Below are positions 4,004 through 54,193 of a stretch of DNA of 64,000 bases, piece after piece. The position numbers were made by a program, and so were the translations under genes. Positions within the stretch are counted from its first letter, which is position 1. Each line of letters begins with the position of its first letter. The notes below the pieces were generated by a model. It was not told the DNA's origin and did not search any database. It saw nothing but the letters and a program-made list of their open reading frames with translations. Origin of the DNA: a virus. Lineage: Duplodnaviria > Heunggongvirae > Uroviricota > Caudoviricetes. The stretch is from positions 1-64,000 of the IMG/VR virus record IMGVR_UViG_2609459822_000013; one strand, given 5' to 3'.

Positions 4004-5108
4004 ATTCAGGGTAATAAACAAAGCGCCCGATTTCCCCGTGATCAGGACTGTAAATTATTCCCGCCGTCAGACGCCGCGACCGCCAGCCGCCATTCGTTGA
4101 ATAAGCGTCTTTGCCCGCTAACGTGCCGTGATACTCAACAACGCCTAACGATGATTCAATCAACCGTTGGTGGTGCCAGTGCCCGCAATGAGCATAAACC
4201 GCCGCAGACTTACCGAAATCTTCCCGCCAGTCAGAGACGCAGGCAGACAACAAATTTTCTGGTTTTTTGATGGTGTGTCCGTGGTGGTAAGCAAGGAATG
4301 TTTTGCCGTACTGTGTGTGGTGTACGATAGCAGGTGACACGTCAATCGTTACGCGCGGTTCATCTTCGTAAAAAGCCGCCAGCGCAGCACGTAGCCAAAT
4401 CATCCCCGACTGATCGTGATTACCTGATAATACCTGGATTTCGATTTCTTTGTGGTTTAACAACATCTTTCCTACAGCACGGCGGACTGACCGGATCGCC
4501 ACATAAACAAGTTTTGCGTAGCGTGAATCGCAATCAAGTACGTGATTGCTTGATGGCGTCACTGGCAACAGCCCATCAGTGTGAAGAACATCCCCACCGA
4601 GAAGCAATACAGCTTTTTCAGACATCGGCGCTGCGCCTACCGCGTAGTCAAAGAAATCATTTAGCACGCGTTCAGCGATCCCGGTGTCGTAGCTCTCACC
4701 GCATTCAGCTTTATGAGCAAGCGCCCCGATATGCAGATCGAATACCGGATAAAGGGCCAGGCTTTTTTGGAAATCAATTTCCGGCACTGGCACGGCCTCC
4801 GCGCGTGGCATGTCTTCCGTGAAAGCATCGCAAGCCGCTTGCATTAGCCTTTCCATTTCATCGCGATCACGGGCTGTTTTAATCCAGCGCATAATCACAT
4901 TGCCATCCTTATCGACGAGCAATGACTCACCATTGACGCCAAAGCCCGGCGCGCGACGCGTGGATATTAAACCGCGTTTCGCCAACCGTGCGCCCAGGCG
5001 TTCGACGTTGCGTTTTGCCATTCCATATTCTTCTGCTATTTGCTTGTAAGTTTTCCCCTTGTTGTACTCGGCGATCAGTTCCTCATCGCTGATCTTTCTT
5101 TGTGACAT
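3990..5108 (-). CDS. N-terminal HTH fused to calcineurin-like metallophosphoesterase
   Basis: 372 aa; HTH YKQIAEEYGMAKRNVERLGARLAKRG; phosphoesterase motifs GGDVLHTDG, SGNHDQSG, HHGH, GHWHH. Confidence 0.6.
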   Translation of the reverse strand: MSQRKISDEELIAEYNKGKTYKQIAEEYGMAKRNVERLGARLAKRGLISTRRAPGFGVNGESLLVDKDGNVIMRWIKTARDRDEMERLMQAACDAFTEDMPRAEAVPVPEIDFQKSLALYPVFDLHIGALAHKAECGESYDTGIAERVLNDFFDYAVGAAPMSEKAVLLLGGDVLHTDGLLPVTPSSNHVLDCDSRYAKLVYVAIRSVRRAVGKMLLNHKEIEIQVLSGNHDQSGMIWLRAALAAFYEDEPRVTIDVSPAIVHHTQYGKTFLAYHHGHTIKKPENLLSACVSDWREDFGKSAAVYAHCGHWHHQRLIESSLGVVEYHGTLAGKDAYSTNGGWRSRRLTAGIIYSPDHGEIGRFVYYPEYSIL

Positions 5109-5285
5109 AACGTTATTACCCCCGGTTCGCGGAATGAGTATTTATTCATAAATAACTAATTTTTATTAACATGGATTTCACGGTGTCAAAAAATGCCAGT
5201 AGGGTTAATCAACAACTTATGCAAATTGAAATAACCACTTAATGAATAACTAATCGTATACATTACGGTTTACAATTTGTATACA

Positions 5286-9927: not shown

Positions 9928-10569
9928 GTGAAAACAGAGTTACATAAAAAGCTATGGGCGATTCAGCAAACGCTGAACGCGCCGAAAAATCAGCGTAATA
10001 ATTTTGGTGGATATAATTACAGGTCGGCGGAGGATATTTTAGAGGCGGTTAAACCACTGCTTCAAAATATCACGCTGACTGTTAGTGATGAAATTGTCCT
10101 GATCGGCAATCGCTATTATGTGAAAGCAACGGCGACGCTAAGCGACGGTGAAGACGTAATAGCGGTAACTGCTTATGCCAGGGAGGAAGAAAGCAAGAAG
10201 GGTATGGACGCCAGCCAGCTAACAGGAGCAACATCAAGTTACGCGCGTAAATATGCTTTGAACGGTTTATTCTGTATAGATGATGCTCGCGATCCTGATA
10301 CTGATGCTTACGCGAAGCAGACAGGCCAGCAGCCGCGACAACAGAAAAACCCACCAAAACAACAACCGCAGCAGAAGAAAGCGCCGCCAAATCCTGATGA
10401 AGTGTTAGCACGTTTCTGTGATGCAGCAGCGAAAGCGCAGGACGCTAACAAGCTGCGTGAAATATTTGGCAAATGCTGGAAATTACTACCGGAAGGATCG
10501 GAGCATCGAATCAAGGCAAAAGATGTTTATGACATCCGGGTAGCAGAGCTTAACGGGGAGATGGGTTAA
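9928..10569 (+). CDS. erf: Erf-family single-strand annealing recombinase
   Basis: 213 aa; ERF signature GGYNYRSAEDILEAVKPLL; GTG start with GGGAGA RBS. Confidence 0.8.
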   Translation: MKTELHKKLWAIQQTLNAPKNQRNNFGGYNYRSAEDILEAVKPLLQNITLTVSDEIVLIGNRYYVKATATLSDGEDVIAVTAYAREEESKKGMDASQLTGATSSYARKYALNGLFCIDDARDPDTDAYAKQTGQQPRQQKNPPKQQPQQKKAPPNPDEVLARFCDAAAKAQDANKLREIFGKCWKLLPEGSEHRIKAKDVYDIRVAELNGEMG

Positions 10570-10988
10570 TGAGTTTAAATTCAATCACGCTGGGCGGGAA
10601 TATCGGTAATGATATGGAGGTTCGCTACACACAAAACGGGAAAGCGATTGGTAGTTTTCCGTTAGCTGTAACGAATGGCTACGGCGATAATAAGCGGACA
10701 ATGTGGGTCACTTGCCTTGTATTTGGTGAGCGTGCGGAAAAATTAGCGCCACATATCCGCAAGGGTGGAAAAATAGTGGTAAACGGTCGCTTGGATGTTC
10801 GGCAATATGACCGGAACGACGGCACGAAGGGAACGGCGGTAGAAGTGGCGGTTAACGAATTCGAATTTATGAACGTTAACCAACAGGGCCAGCAGCAAGG
10901 CCAGCAGCAGAAAGCGCCACCGCCGCAGCAGAATAACAACGGGAATAATCCGCCTCCGATGGACTTCGACGACGATATTCCTTTTTAG
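10569..10988 (+). CDS. ssb: single-stranded DNA-binding protein
   Basis: 139 aa; OB-fold SSB N-terminus, Q/G-rich linker, acidic C-terminal tail DFDDDIPF. Confidence 0.9.
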   Translation: MSLNSITLGGNIGNDMEVRYTQNGKAIGSFPLAVTNGYGDNKRTMWVTCLVFGERAEKLAPHIRKGGKIVVNGRLDVRQYDRNDGTKGTAVEVAVNEFEFMNVNQQGQQQGQQQKAPPPQQNNNGNNPPPMDFDDDIPF

Positions 10989-11064
10989 AATCAATGCGTT
11001 AGCTATGAGTGATTATCTAAAACCGCCACCGCAACCACGAACAAAAGAGCAAGTATTAAAAGAA

Positions 11065-11097
11065 GCCCGCGATCAAATCGATCGCGGGCTTTTTTTA
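11065..11097 (+). terminator. strong Rho-independent terminator downstream of ssb
   Basis: 10 bp perfect stem GCCCGCGATC/GATCGCGGGC followed by T7 run. Confidence 0.65.
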
Positions 11098-11295
11098 TGC
11101 GGCACGGCAGCGGATCGAATGGCGAAAAGATTTAGTGACCTGTACGCGAAGCAAATCTGGTTTGACAACTGGCGAGCGAGTTCTTACCCGCTACAGAAAA
11201 CTGATGATATGCAGTGGCCTGAATATGTTGATCCACGAATGCGCAAATATCGCGGGCGTATGGGCAAGGTTATTAACGATTAATGAGGTATTACC

Positions 11296-11547
11296 ATGAC
11301 AGCTACAACATTAAGCGAAAATAACGGGCGCGGTTTTCAGGGGACTGCGGAAACCTCAGACGATGGTGATGTATTTGTCGAATTCGGTGGCGGTAACTAT
11401 GAATTCGAAACGTCGGCGGGCTGGCACGATAAATGGCCTTTCCCGACGCGCAAGGAATTAAGCGATCGAAAAACATTTGGCGAAGATGCCGAACGCCTGG
11501 CGAATAATAAATGGATGGATAAATTTATTGCGGAGGCTGAAAAATGA
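11296..11547 (+). CDS. hypothetical protein
   Basis: 83 aa ORF with RBS. Confidence 0.45.
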   Translation: MTATTLSENNGRGFQGTAETSDDGDVFVEFGGGNYEFETSAGWHDKWPFPTRKELSDRKTFGEDAERLANNKWMDKFIAEAEK

Positions 11548-11657
11548 GTTTTGCAAAAATTGCAGCATTGGCTGCGGCGGTGGCGATCGCGGCGCTATAT
11601 CTTAGCTTATCGCTTTATATTACGGTGGCGATCATCAAGCTGATTACAACTATGTGA
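11544..11657 (+). CDS. small membrane peptide (37 aa)
   Basis: ATGA overlap with upstream stop; Ala/Ile-rich single TM helix (MSFAKIAALAAAVAIAALYLSLSLYITVAIIKLITTM). Confidence 0.35.
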   Translation: MSFAKIAALAAAVAIAALYLSLSLYITVAIIKLITTM

Positions 11658-11664
11658 GGCAATC

Positions 11665-11787
11665 ATGAGAGTCAGTAAGGATATTGTGACGGTCGCGTTT
11701 TGCGTTATTTGTTTCCTGTTTGCGGTTGTGCTTTGTGGCGCACTTGCGGCAGTGATTAGCTTTATTGGTAAGGGGGTGATGTTATGA
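11665..11787 (+). CDS. small membrane peptide (40 aa)
   Basis: MRVSKDIVTVAFCVICFLFAVVLCGALAAVISFIGKGVML; stop overlaps next start (ATGA). Confidence 0.35.
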   Translation: MRVSKDIVTVAFCVICFLFAVVLCGALAAVISFIGKGVML

Positions 11788-12056
11788 CTCTGTGGGATGC
11801 AAAAGAAGGTGATCTCGTTGTCTTGCCAGCATATCGTAGTGATCTCGGGCTGGTCGTACTGAATAAAACATGTAGCGACATTCAACGCCCGATCCTGGTT
11901 AGATACTTAGACGGCACGATGATCGAACCGCGTTTCTTCGACAAAGTTGAACTGAAGGCCCGCAATGTTCGCGTTAAGCCTTTCCGGGCTTATGTTGAAA
12001 ATCACTGGCGTAAATTGTTCGCCGGACTGAATGGGATGTTCGGCGTATGGCTATAA
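11784..12056 (+). CDS. hypothetical protein
   Basis: 90 aa ORF, coupled in operon. Confidence 0.45.
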   Translation: MTLWDAKEGDLVVLPAYRSDLGLVVLNKTCSDIQRPILVRYLDGTMIEPRFFDKVELKARNVRVKPFRAYVENHWRKLFAGLNGMFGVWL

Positions 12057-12238
12057 AATTAGTGAAGGTTAAACACCTGAAAGGCGGTGAAAGATTAATG
12101 TCATGGTGGGGACATGAATTTATTGCTACTGCCTTTCATTTCGGCCTAGGTGGTCAAGTAACAATATTTGATGAAGATTACGACGAGGTGGGGCAATGGC
12201 ATCTTGAGCAATATGTCGAGGTGTTAAATGAAAATTAA
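12047..12238 (+). CDS. hypothetical protein
   Basis: 63 aa ORF, overlapping start/stop. Confidence 0.4.
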   Translation: MAIKLVKVKHLKGGERLMSWWGHEFIATAFHFGLGGQVTIFDEDYDEVGQWHLEQYVEVLNEN

Positions 12239-12560
12239 ATTCCACAAAGCGTATGACGCTAACACAAACAAGCTATCACTATTTATCGAATTCGAACGCC
12301 GGATCGTGGTAGCGCCTTGGTCGCGGCGCTTTAATGACGCCGCCGGATGTAGACAATTCGCGGTCGATATGCTGTTACGCGGCTGCGGCCTTATGCGTCC
12401 GCTATCTGATTTAAAACGAATGATGCCGGGATCGTTCGGTCAGATTGATGAAATAGAAATAAGCCCGGAAGAACTGAAACGTGAGCGTGATTTATTCCTT
12501 TCAAGCGAAGGAAACCCGTTTAATTCAGAAACTGAAATGAAATGGCATCATCCACTATAA
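12228..12560 (+). CDS. hypothetical protein
   Basis: 110 aa ORF. Confidence 0.45.
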   Translation: MKIKFHKAYDANTNKLSLFIEFERRIVVAPWSRRFNDAAGCRQFAVDMLLRGCGLMRPLSDLKRMMPGSFGQIDEIEISPEELKRERDLFLSSEGNPFNSETEMKWHHPL

Positions 12561-13803: not shown

Positions 13804-13996
13804 ACATTACATGGAATGGAAAATTCCAGAAGCAGCAACAAAGGCAGCGCCAGGAAATGTTTCTGGCGTTTATTTTTATATGGATGGCAAATGGTATTTC
13901 GGCAGCAGGCCGGATCGCTACTATCAAGAAATATGCAAGCCTCACGTATGGGATATTAAAGAGCGCGTGAAAGGCGGGGTAATTGAGGACGTTTAA
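13793..13996 (+). CDS. hypothetical protein
   Basis: 67 aa ORF. Confidence 0.35.
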   Translation: MKFKHYMEWKIPEAATKAAPGNVSGVYFYMDGKWYFGSRPDRYYQEICKPHVWDIKERVKGGVIEDV

Positions 13997-23893: not shown

Positions 23894-23958
23894 AGCCGTA
23901 TTTGTGGGTCGAAAACAAACAGATTAAAATATTACCTAACAATGCGAAACTGTAACTA

Positions 23959-23982
23959 CCCGGCCCCGTGCCGGGTTTTTGC
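23959..23982 (+). terminator. tR-prime-like intrinsic terminator upstream of lysis genes
   Basis: hairpin CCCGGC-CCCGT-GCCGGG followed by TTTTT. Confidence 0.55.
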
Positions 23983-24000
23983 TTTGTTGGAGGTAAATCT

Positions 24001-24201
24001 ATGTTCGACAGAATACGGGAGGCATGTGCGTATGTGACTGGGGCCGTAACTGCTTTTTTCGGCGCGATAACCATCAATGATATTGCCGTCTTTGTGGGTA
24101 TCTTATCAACCGTAGGCACATTTGCCGTTAATTATTACTTCAAATCGCAGGAGAACAAGCGAGCGCAAGAGGAACACGACGCGCGAATGGGGAATAAGTA
24201 A
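24001..24201 (+). CDS. holin (pinholin-like, class II)
   Basis: 66 aa; GGAGG RBS; two TM segments and charged C-terminus; directly precedes endolysin. Confidence 0.7.
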
Positions 24202-24202
24202 C

Positions 24203-24694
24203 ATGATTAGCCAATCGCTGAAAAATAAGATTATTGCGGCGGCGGCTGGTGGGGCGATCGCTATTGCGGGGATGATGATAAAAGATCTTGAAGGCGTTGA
24301 GTATAAGCCGTACAGAGATGTCATCGGTGTTTACACGATATGTTATGGACACGTCGGAAAAGACATCATGCTTGGGAAGACTTACACGCAATCAGAATGC
24401 GATGCTTTGTTAAATAAAGATCTACACAAGACCGCAAAAGCGATTGACCCATATATCAAAGTCGAAATATCAGATTTTACCCGCGCTGCACTTTATTCCT
24501 TCGCCTATAACGTAGGCGCAACCAACTTCAAAACATCAACCTTATTAAAACTACTCAATGACGGCAAGAAATCAGAAGCGTGCGCACAGCTTAAGCGCTG
24601 GGTATACGCTGGCGGTAAGAAGTGGCAAGGCCTGGTAAACCGCCGCGAGGTTGAATATGCCGTTTGCGAATGGGGGGAAACGTGGACAAGGTGA
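24203..24694 (+). CDS. SAR endolysin (T4-lysozyme-like, GH24)
   Basis: N-terminal weakly hydrophobic signal-anchor [17 protein letters not shown]; lysozyme core pattern (E...D...Y.C..GH.TIG). Confidence 0.8.
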
Positions 24695-25152
24695 AGGCGT
24701 TAATTATCGCCGCTGTTGTTTGCATTATTGCCGGACTGACCGCCGTAACATGTTATTACCAGGGTGAGGCGGCAAGGTTACAGGAAGAAGTCACGGTAAC
24801 GAAAGGCGCACTGAAAACGGCAAGTAACACTATTCAGCAGATGAAGGAGCGAAACGCCGAACTGTCAAAACTTGATAAGAGGTATCACGATGAGATTAAA
24901 GCTATCAGATCTGACATTGCCGATCTGCGCACTGGCATTGATAACGGTACTATCCGGTTGCGCGTCAACGCAATACCCGTGCGAGTGTCCGACCCCGCCG
25001 CGACCGCCAGCCGCATTGATGGAGCCACCTGCGAGCTTGATGCCACTGCTAGACAATCTTATCTATCCCTCAGAGAACAACTAAAAGAGAAAGACGCACA
25101 GATCACTGGCCTACAGGACTACATCAAAACTCAGTGTTTACGCAAAGAATAG
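24664..25152 (+). CDS. Rz-like i-spanin
   Basis: N-terminal TM followed by coiled-coil; immediately after endolysin; start codon uncertain. Confidence 0.65.
24890..25084 (+). CDS. Rz1-like o-spanin lipoprotein embedded in Rz (+1 frame)
   Basis: signal peptide with lipobox LSGC, Pro-rich mature part; fully nested in Rz. Confidence 0.65.
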   Translation: MRLKLSDLTLPICALALITVLSGCASTQYPCECPTPPRPPAALMEPPASLMPLLDNLIYPSENN

Positions 25153-25431
25153 CAGCGCGTTGACGTGTCGCCGTTTCTGTCAGCCAGCCATAACCGGGCC
25201 AATCCTTCCCGCGAGCGACGGCGGAATAGTCAAAAACACGTAATACCGGATCAACAGTCCCATTAACAGGTCAGGCGCTACCTGGGTAGAAGAAAGCGCC
25301 ATTCACCAATTTTATAAAATTCTGGAAACGGTACTGATGAAGCGCCGTTTTCAGTGTTTTATAACTGTTTTCACTCCCTGCGGTGTCGAGTTTTGCGGGG
25401 GTTATATTTTTCAGAATAGGAGATTATTCTG

Positions 25432-25974
25432 ATGGCTAAGGCTAAAGGCATTAAATTGCCTCAATTTAAGATCCCACTCTTTGAGCATACAACCGTTTTT
25501 TTTTGCCCGACCCGCGAGATGTTCTATGAATTTTGCGAAAAGGCAGGAATTCCGATTGAACCTGATTTCGAGTTGGCTGGAGGATTAACGCTTACTTGCA
25601 CTGGCGAGAATGGTGGTAACTTCTACGTGATCGCAGTATTCAACAATGAGTTGGGAACGCTGGTCCATGAATGCGCCCACACTACATTCCACGTTTTAAG
25701 TGATGTAGGCGTCGTGGCTACCACGGATCCTACCCATCCGGCGAATGAGACTTACGCTTACATGGTAGGCCGTATCTTCGATGCGTTTTTCCCTATCCTA
25801 GCAGAATCAAACGAAGCACAGGTTGCAGCAATGCAGGCGGCAGAAGTCGTCGATCAGGCGCTGGAACAGGCAGAACAGCCGAAGGAAGAAGAAAAGCCAG
25901 CGAAGAAAGGTAAACGTAAGCCTAAGCAAAAAGATGCGTTAGTCCAGCGTGTAATGAGCTTTAAACGAGGCTGA
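25432..25974 (+). CDS. hypothetical protein with HExxH motif (possible zinc metallopeptidase) and basic C-terminal tail
   Basis: 180 aa; VHECAHTTFH; C-terminus KKGKRKPKQK. Confidence 0.5.
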   Translation: MAKAKGIKLPQFKIPLFEHTTVFFCPTREMFYEFCEKAGIPIEPDFELAGGLTLTCTGENGGNFYVIAVFNNELGTLVHECAHTTFHVLSDVGVVATTDPTHPANETYAYMVGRIFDAFFPILAESNEAQVAAMQAAEVVDQALEQAEQPKEEEKPAKKGKRKPKQKDALVQRVMSFKRG

Positions 25975-25976
25975 TT

Positions 25977-54071: not shown

Positions 54072-54193
54072 GCAGGTGAATGCAACGTCAAGCGATGGGC
54101 GTTGCGCTCCATATTGTCTTACTTCCTTTTTTGAATTACTGCATAGCACAATTGATTCGTACGACGCCGACTTTGATGAGTCGGCTTTTTTTT
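54072..54193 (+). ncRNA. fnrS: FnrS small regulatory RNA
   Basis: recalled FnrS sequence (GCAGGTGAATGCAACGTCAAGCGATGGGCG...) and zntB-dbpA intergenic location; ends in hairpin GCCGACTTTGATGAGTCGGC + T9. Confidence 0.75.

Follow-up and report, generated by a model that had tools for sequence, protein, structure and literature searches.

A sheet, a backing helix, an active-site helix and a glutamate helix are the hallmarks of zincins and gluzincins (PMC7213743, PMC9262961), and the glutamate helix of the gluzincins carries the motif (E,H)xx(A,F,T,S,G) (PMC7213743). ArdC of plasmid R388 combines an HExxH active-site helix, a glutamate and a tyrosine on the next helix and an acidic catalytic pocket with an attached nucleic-acid-binding module; it is borne by a mobile element, its protein target is unknown, and its authors propose that the tyrosine on the glutamate helix stabilises the substrate (PMC7213743). 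Together with Spartan and IrrE, ArdC is a precedent for a zincin core coupled to a DNA-binding module (PMC7213743). Here we analyse a 180-residue protein encoded in a 64,000-nucleotide (nt) stretch of tailed-phage DNA (positions 1 to 64,000 of IMG/VR record IMGVR_UViG_2609459822_000013, hereafter the window), which a first reading of the sequence (the original prediction) had singled out as an HExxH protein with a lysine-rich tail, lying between the spanin genes and an array of mini open reading frames (mini-ORFs). From profile comparisons and structure prediction we conclude that this protein belongs to the zincin superfamily, in a family without a name that is restricted to phages and has predicted gluzincin-type ligands, and that it is not SprT-like, MPTase-PolyVal, M78 or astacin. 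With roughly even confidence, we read it as a DNA-docked cytoplasmic zinc peptidase whose substrate, of host or phage origin, would be a protein on or near phage DNA at about the stage of packaging. The gene and its product are laid out as follows.

25432..25974, + strand: coding sequence, 180 amino acids (aa) plus stop, ATG start, complete
25418..25422, + strand: Shine-Dalgarno AGGAG, 9 nt 5' of the ATG, read from the sequence
25432..25806, + strand: core domain, aa 1-125, acidic (isoelectric point, pI, 5.0), predicted minimal zincin fold
25666..25680, + strand: HECAH (H79, E80, H83), aa 79-83, predicted metal-binding histidines and catalytic glutamate
25744..25761, + strand: N105-E106-T-Y-A-Y110, with E106, at the beginning of the following helix, predicted to be the third metal ligand, and Y110 nearly invariant
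25807..25893, + strand: acidic helix, aa 126-154, 8 D/E and 1 K/R, prolonging the glutamate helix
25894..25932, + strand: polybasic stretch KPAKKGKRKPKQK, aa 155-167, 8 K/R in 13 residues, pI 11.5
25933..25971, + strand: C-terminal peptide DALVQRVMSFKRG, aa 168-180, its sequence more strongly conserved than that of the linker helix

As first noted, the protein contains a single HECAH motif, which is the sole HExxH in the protein and among the 74 window ORFs of at least 100 aa. Because HExxH arises by chance in about 1% of shuffles of the window protein and 74 such ORFs were present, one occurrence would be unremarkable alone; its significance lies in family-wide invariance rather than in the presence of the motif. 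A profile search of 1.84 billion cluster representatives defined a family of 928 clusters at 50% identity (E <=1e-3). HExxH is present in 140 of the 146 representatives returned and the remaining six are truncated or frameshifted, so that all 140 intact sequences carry it. In alignments of 93 and 105 relatives, which are 16-63% identical to the window protein, the only invariant columns are G51, H79, E80, H83 and E106, while F70, T76, G93 and Y110 are at least 90% conserved; H79, E80, H83 and E106 are also invariant in an alignment of 30 relatives. The spacing from H83 to E106 is 23 residues here and the equivalent gap is 18-19 in shorter relatives, values that fall inside the range of gluzincins. 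The N-terminus, MAKxK..KLP, is likewise kept across the family alignment, and this conservation fixes the start codon. We computed the ratio of non-synonymous to synonymous substitution rates (dN/dS) against four relatives. For the core it was 0.02-0.05 in comparisons with close relatives, rising to about 0.1 with a protein of 60% identity; for the tail it was 0.07-0.17 among close relatives and 0.3-0.9 against the 60%-identical protein, which comes from a metagenome-assembled genome. We conclude that the ORF is a genuine gene, with strong purifying selection acting on core and tail alike.

Structure prediction, which the original prediction had proposed as a check, placed the motif within the expected setting. 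An AlphaFold2 model of residues 1-130 built from 105 sequences had a predicted local distance difference test score (pLDDT) of 93 and a predicted template modelling score (pTM) of 0.87, and the full-length model a pLDDT of 80. The modelled elements are strands at 11-13, 21-25, 51-57 and 63-69, a backing helix at 28-38 and a short helix at 44-48; the HExxH motif lies on helix 74-91, which is followed by a loop and then by helix 105-129, opening with N105-E106. The predicted core topology is that of a minimal zincin, with sheet, backing helix, HExxH helix and glutamate helix. E106-T-Y-A matches the gluzincin motif (E,H)xx(A,F,T,S,G), with E106 at the N-terminus of helix 105-129, and Y110, one turn past E106, parallels the ArdC tyrosine. 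Searches of the PDB with the model (Foldseek) gave no match, and a profile of 30 sequences found nothing there. The deeper family profile returned eight PDB matches at E <=10, every one a zinc protease with its HExxH aligned; the E-values were marginal, at 0.005-0.03 for myroilysin and 0.03-0.3 for BMP1 and tolloid. The invariance of H79, E80, H83 and E106, the predicted zincin order and the restriction of PDB profile matches to zinc proteases together favour the small zinc metallopeptidase that had been proposed. That the core is a cytoplasmic metal-dependent peptidase is the best-supported step in our reading, as judged from family alignment and model; we infer that the protein binds metal, acts as a peptidase and docks on DNA, and infer the class of its substrate.

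We compared the protein with named families to place it further. The window protein matches PHROG 1365, a group of unknown function, with E 2.3e-31 (aa 1-131 against profile positions 3-124 of 127). Every resemblance to a named family is sub-threshold, and the zinc-metallopeptidase assignment is one that we infer from profiles and motif. A weak match to SprT-like PF10263 was seen for 22 of 93 relatives (best E 1e-4), and a few of the 93 weakly match other putative metallopeptidase families. Match details came from two blind samples of ten relatives, of which none and then three gave a SprT-like match. Alignment by hhalign of the family profile with the single sequence of E. coli SprT (YggI) gave a probability of 5%. 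Depositors had labelled two relatives 'PolyVal metallopeptidase' (P0118, 60% identical to the window protein) and 'SprT-like'. The family resembles the SprT-like, Spartan and Wss1 DNA-dependent metalloproteases in its small predicted zincin core with an HExxH helix, and the activity of those enzymes is coupled to DNA binding through basic regions, but the window protein is without a zinc-ribbon or ZBD sub-domain. The third ligand of Spartan is a histidine (PMC7213743), whereas the invariant candidate in the window family is E106, and H87 of the window protein is tyrosine in nearly all P22-type relatives. We rejected SprT-like membership on the sub-threshold scores and the lack of a conserved downstream histidine.

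Membership of MPTase-PolyVal, the ArdC family, was rejected as well. PF18818 is absent from the best 25 of the 35 Pfam families matched by the 93 members and has no match in the window protein, and members of our family are stand-alone proteins. The likeness to ArdC lies in the predicted gluzincin-type site joined to a nucleic-acid-binding module, which in ArdC is a folded N-terminal domain that binds single-stranded DNA (ssDNA); where ArdC has this folded ssDNA-binding domain, the window protein has only a disordered basic tail. ArdC is also a plasmid gene, whereas the window family matches only 8 of 72,556 plasmid records, most of which look like phage genomes; a plasmid-type anti-restriction gene was rejected on this near absence. 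For ImmA/IrrE (Peptidase_M78, PF06114) only one of 93 members matches, with E 0.099, no adjacent helix-turn-helix repressor partner of the ImmA/IrrE style was found at any locus examined, and this candidate too was discarded. In contrast to the repressor-cleaving ImmA/IrrE metalloproteases and to CapP, the family lies on the late strand in the sampled temperate phages. An astacin-type metzincin (M12A, defined by HExxHxxGxxH and a Met-turn) is rejected by the lack of a conserved glycine at +3 or histidine at +6 after H83; the profile matches to the astacin-family proteases myroilysin and BMP1 were no more than marginal. The minigluzincins proabylysin and projannalysin, and scaffolds like PDB 3e11, count among the closest systems. 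PADLOC, which covers known defence systems, returned nothing meaningful for the window protein.

Some of these results weigh against a peptidase. A Pfam scan of the window protein at E <=10 found nothing, and the inspected PF10263 matches scored 12.6-14.9 bits against a gathering threshold of 25.6 and spanned only 15-20 residues around the motif. HExxH is also known in non-peptidases such as the alphaKG-HExxH peptide beta-hydroxylases (TIGR04267), to which a scan of NCBIfam gave matches around the motif, all of them sub-threshold (E 0.008-0.16), and it is documented outside proteases (Morishita 2024, cited in PMC13434306). A site that serves something other than peptide hydrolysis, whether as a metal-dependent hydroxylase, as another hydrolase or as a structural metal in a small adaptor, would fit with the absence of a peptidase family at threshold and of a strong structural match. 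The TIGR04267 scores are, however, 12-16 bits (11.9 for the window protein, 15-16 for relatives) against a curated cut-off of 40, and the match in the window protein and P0121 is confined to 25-30 residues around the motif; the hydroxylase itself was rejected on these scores. The invariant E80 and the helix of E106 suit the gluzincin pattern, and we regard a non-peptidase as improbable.

The nearest homologues lie in well-studied phages. HK620 hkcC, phage L Orf129, ST64T gp49, ST104 orf47 and epsilon34 gp70 are true homologues of the core within PHROG 1365, with 37-46% identity over aa 1-125 and with HExxH and NETY(A/C)Y in common. These P22-like proteins are 120-130 aa long, are without the acidic helix, polybasic stretch and terminal peptide of the window protein, and none is characterised. 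In P22 itself we found a member that is unannotated in RefSeq (NC_002371.2 13849-14226, + strand, ATG at 13861; L004 2989-3366), which carries HECAH and NETYCY and is equivalent to HK620 hkcC. A literature search for hkcC found unrelated acronyms only, one for MPTase-PolyVal gave no result, and the paper describing the mEpimmI phages makes no mention of the zincin-like gene.

Beyond the core, the window protein and its mEp021-like relatives carry about 55 additional residues, whereas most family members are 115-140 aa long and end soon after the glutamate helix. In the full-length model the glutamate helix continues without interruption from 106 to 148 (pLDDT 93-96). The acidic linker is lineage-specific, poorly conserved and variable in length, with a 14-aa insert in mEp021 and mEp044, and the polybasic stretch that follows is predicted to be disordered (pLDDT ~50-66). 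The protein had been described as ending in this basic tail; the polybasic region stands, at aa 155-167, but it is not terminal, as 13 more residues, DALVQRVMSFKRG, come after it. The terminal peptide, ALVPRVMSFKRG, is a candidate docking segment. A protein with only 60% overall identity has almost the same ending, KKGKRKPKAKEALVPRVMSFKR(G/W), and a member of about 50% identity ends in YVPRIARYKRG. We found the terminal motif in no other phage protein among 50,697 phage records. Tails with a charged helix and a K/R-rich segment are present in the divergent members P0241, P0260, P0301, P0309, P0321 and P0361, and on this ground the architecture recurs. We suggest that the tail docks on a partner, for which DNA is the simplest candidate in the case of the polybasic part; an autoinhibitory fold-back of the basic tail onto the acidic core (pI 5.0) is conceivable. 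Because most family members are tailless, which weighs against our reading, DNA docking could not be a general property of the family.

We next compared the genomic setting of the gene across the family. In most sampled lineages it abuts or sits within the terminase gene pair. At L018 and L019, which encode the tail-bearing P0241, the order is Rz, an ASCH protein and the zincin, with the small terminase 4 nt on; in ST64T and other P22-like phages the gene likewise lies between Rz and the small terminase, and at L006 (P0118) it occupies the same slot as in the window. At L007, L008 and L022/L023 it lies between the small and large terminase genes and overlaps both, the overlaps at L007, L008 and L022 comprising the small-terminase stop codon and the large-terminase start codon. 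In an SU10-like phage (L020/L021) it overlaps the start of a different large terminase, and at L020 an unidentified 161-aa ORF upstream stops 3 nt before it. The large-terminase start codon is thus overlapped by the zincin gene in four lineages. At L010, L014, L016 and L017 the gene is in an operon with two ParB_N proteins and ABC-like ATPases, which at L017 lies 2.5 kb upstream of the large terminase. A comparison of the large terminases of L007, L008, L020, L022, L017, L003, L018 and the window (27224-28708) sorted those adjacent to the gene into five classes without mutual BLASTP similarity, and the zincins beside them are 27-48% identical. We favour the packaging-linked reading because of this codon-overlapping placement beside unrelated terminases and because of the recurrent basic tails.

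The position of the gene at the start of the head and packaging block also bears on whether the enzyme is itself encapsidated, with the tail as a capsid-targeting or DNA-condensing signal, for head maturation or for delivery to the next host. A flexible basic linker followed by a short conserved C-terminal peptide is a layout that would suit such a signal, the HK97 protease and encapsulin cargo have similar C-terminal targeting signals, and a scan of head genes revealed neither a canonical prohead protease nor a scaffold. Against this, the tail motif is on no other window ORF, and the tailless majority of the family includes P22-like phages, which need no head protease. Mass spectrometry of mEp021 identified 16 virion proteins, none from the zincin-like gene; they map to the structural cluster and to two genes upstream of the lysis region, and the proteomics used excised gel bands, which low-copy proteins would escape (PMC11893012). 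We consider an encapsidated enzyme quite improbable.

Several further observations weigh against a packaging role and bear on a different explanation, in which the protein is a host-takeover or counter-defence protease that acts on a protein of the host cytoplasm, such as one serving defence or the stress response, with no mechanistic link to packaging. The terminase-proximal slot would then merely give late expression, and the tail would bind a protein partner or tune stability. Terminase-adjacent regions are frequent slots for accessory genes. P22 and HK620 carry an intact copy on the late strand at an accessory position, within immI and flanked by sieA and mnt, and in the N4-like phages Bp4 and phCDa the gene is among the left-end early genes; the early location in N4-like phages and the immI location in P22 and HK620 weaken an obligatory link to packaging. 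Compared within a lineage, the zincins have drifted further apart than the large terminases beside them, with identities of 39% (zincin) and 67% (terminase) in one comparison and of 47% and 69% in another; faster divergence of this kind is more typical of host-interaction genes. Pfam matches to anti-defence families lie just 5' of the zincin in the same operon, Tad2-like at L017 (6729-7004) and the Acb2/Tad1 hairpin at L024 (3877-4155); the L024 contig ends before any terminase region.

A host target would also agree with the sporadic distribution of the lineage, which is present in 27 of 5,426 complete E. coli genomes (chromosomal every time and annotated as hypothetical), and with ArdC, in which a zincin domain forms part of an anti-restriction protein (PMC7213743). 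On the other side, expression of the gene is late in temperate phages, the codon overlaps with terminase genes in four lineages suggest co-translation, and PADLOC found no similarity to known defence-system proteins. Most counter-defence genes act early. Weighing these points, we hold a host-directed protease without a packaging link to be possible, though on the unlikely side.

The setting of the gene in the window bears on its expression and on the remaining proposals. The window represents an mEp021-like ("mEpimmI") temperate E. coli prophage, in which positions 25000-26800 share 86-91% identity with MagusPhagus, mEp044, mEp010, mEp554, mEp013 and mEp021. Clusters of 98-99% identity are present in E. 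coli prophages, and all GenBank and RefSeq records give the window gene as a hypothetical protein. The gene order is a tR'-like terminator, holin, endolysin, Rz/Rz1, a 280-nt spacer, the zincin-like ORF, nine mini-ORFs and the small terminase, followed by a head block of large terminase, portal, Mu-F-like protein, decoration and major capsid proteins. The neighbouring features are listed here.

23958-23976: tR'-like terminator, upstream of the lysis genes
24664-25152: Rz, with Rz1 embedded at 24872-25084
25322..25361, + strand: terminator-like hairpin and U-rich run in the spacer between the spanin genes and the ORF, stem 25322-25331 / 25345-25354
26742-27227: small terminase, downstream of the mini-ORFs

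An RNA fold of 25153-25440 includes the hairpin at 25322-25354, and terminator TERM_6 of mEp021 is annotated at the equivalent site, 78-110 nt 5' of the start; a simple terminator scan missed this hairpin. Presumably, a Q-antiterminated late transcript reads through it. We found no promoter-like (sigma-70-like) site in 24000-26400, and on this basis read the zincin-like ORF as a member of the late transcript. The gene had been likened in position to the bor moron of lambda. A moron of the bor type is a lipoprotein gene that has its own promoter, runs against the late operon and is expressed in the lysogen. It does occupy the corresponding map position, but it lies on the late strand and has neither a lipobox or signal peptide nor a promoter-like site nearby; a bor-type moron was rejected for its wrong strand and the missing lipobox and promoter.

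Directly downstream, the nine mini-ORFs (25977-26731, + strand) are in tandem, tightly packed or overlapping, and encode peptides of 21-35 aa, each amounting to about one hydrophobic membrane-spanning segment. The position of the gene just upstream of this array, as originally reported, is confirmed, with the stop codon 2 nt before the first mini-ORF ATG (25977). This spacing makes translational coupling possible, and the gene comes after the lysis cassette. From its site just upstream of the array, the original prediction suggested that the protein could process or regulate the mini-peptides, or act on host envelope proteins during lysis. The number of mini-ORFs varies, however, with a shorter array at L006 and none at L018/L019, where a tail-bearing relative abuts the small terminase, and single-span peptides of 21-35 aa leave little room for a removable leader. 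As the protein has no signal peptide or membrane segment, it would have no access to envelope proteins before lysis, and most relatives are not beside lysis genes. Given that relatives lie in the terminase pair, in immI or in the N4-like early region, the association with mini-ORFs and lysis genes is a property of particular lineages. We assign both proposals a very slight probability, and a pairing with the mini-ORFs of the kind seen for ribosomally synthesised and post-translationally modified peptides was rejected on the unconserved linkage.

These data allow us to propose a mechanism for the DNA-docked zinc peptidase. The product would be a soluble cytoplasmic protein of two parts, a gluzincin-type core (aa 1-125) and a 55-residue lineage-specific appendage, made from the late transcript along with the downstream terminase genes. 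We anticipate that H79 and H83 on one helix and E106 at the start of the next hold the metal, with E80 as general base. The appendage, consisting of a rigid acidic helix, the disordered polybasic stretch and the terminal peptide, may dock the enzyme on a polyanionic partner, most likely DNA. Once docked, the core would cleave a protein of the host or the phage, located on phage DNA or close to it, at about the time of packaging. A broader version of this model, which we put forward tentatively and regard as rather doubtful, is that phage-specific minimal zincins travel between phages as a single-gene cassette kept by the terminase genes, of whatever type these are, and that the DNA-docked protease clears proteins from phage DNA at packaging. 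The targets could be nucleoid or defence proteins from the host, or else proteins that have stalled or become cross-linked. Such a system would apply the logic of SprT/Spartan and ArdC in viruses, and some lineages would add a tail resembling histone H1 together with a dedicated C-terminal docking peptide.

Other observations were made at these loci. A putative 31-aa ORF at 25337-25432 (+ strand), annotated as a coding sequence in MagusPhagus, stops at a TGA sharing one base with the zincin ATG and runs through the U-rich run just past the terminator-like hairpin. Positions 25972-26071, at the first mini-ORF, share 82-84% nucleotide identity with unrelated rV5-like phages such as FV3. A 427-aa PHROG 760 protein of unknown function is encoded at 31034-32317 (+ strand), between the Mu-F-like and decoration proteins. 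In the related metagenomic phage of L006 an HNH_3/AP2 endonuclease gene is inserted between endolysin and spanin (4752-5273), and the Mu-F-like head protein (10491-12398) carries an intein. Rfam matches above gathering thresholds to the small RNA (sRNA) FnrS and the RalA antitoxin sRNA of the rac prophage (54072-54189 and 58499-58677, + strand) indicate that the mEp021-like prophage does not extend into the right-hand part of the window, where the DNA is of host or rac-like origin.

Together these data add a new protein, as yet uncharacterised, to a superfamily that is very well known; the family size, the P22 copy, the recurrent tail and the association with terminases are noteworthy. The family is large and restricted to phages (928 clusters), occurs in P22, where RefSeq leaves it unannotated, as well as in HK620, phage L, epsilon34 and N4-like phages, and has no model in Pfam or NCBIfam; it gives the impression of a neglected family more than of an exotic one. 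If the protein is an accessory protease with a host target, the result is of value for annotation and would bring little surprise. The zincin assignment supplies a concrete, testable activity, and P22 and mEp021 are genetically tractable. Placement beside five unrelated classes of terminase raises the question of whether a protease is needed at that point for packaging or for surviving host responses.

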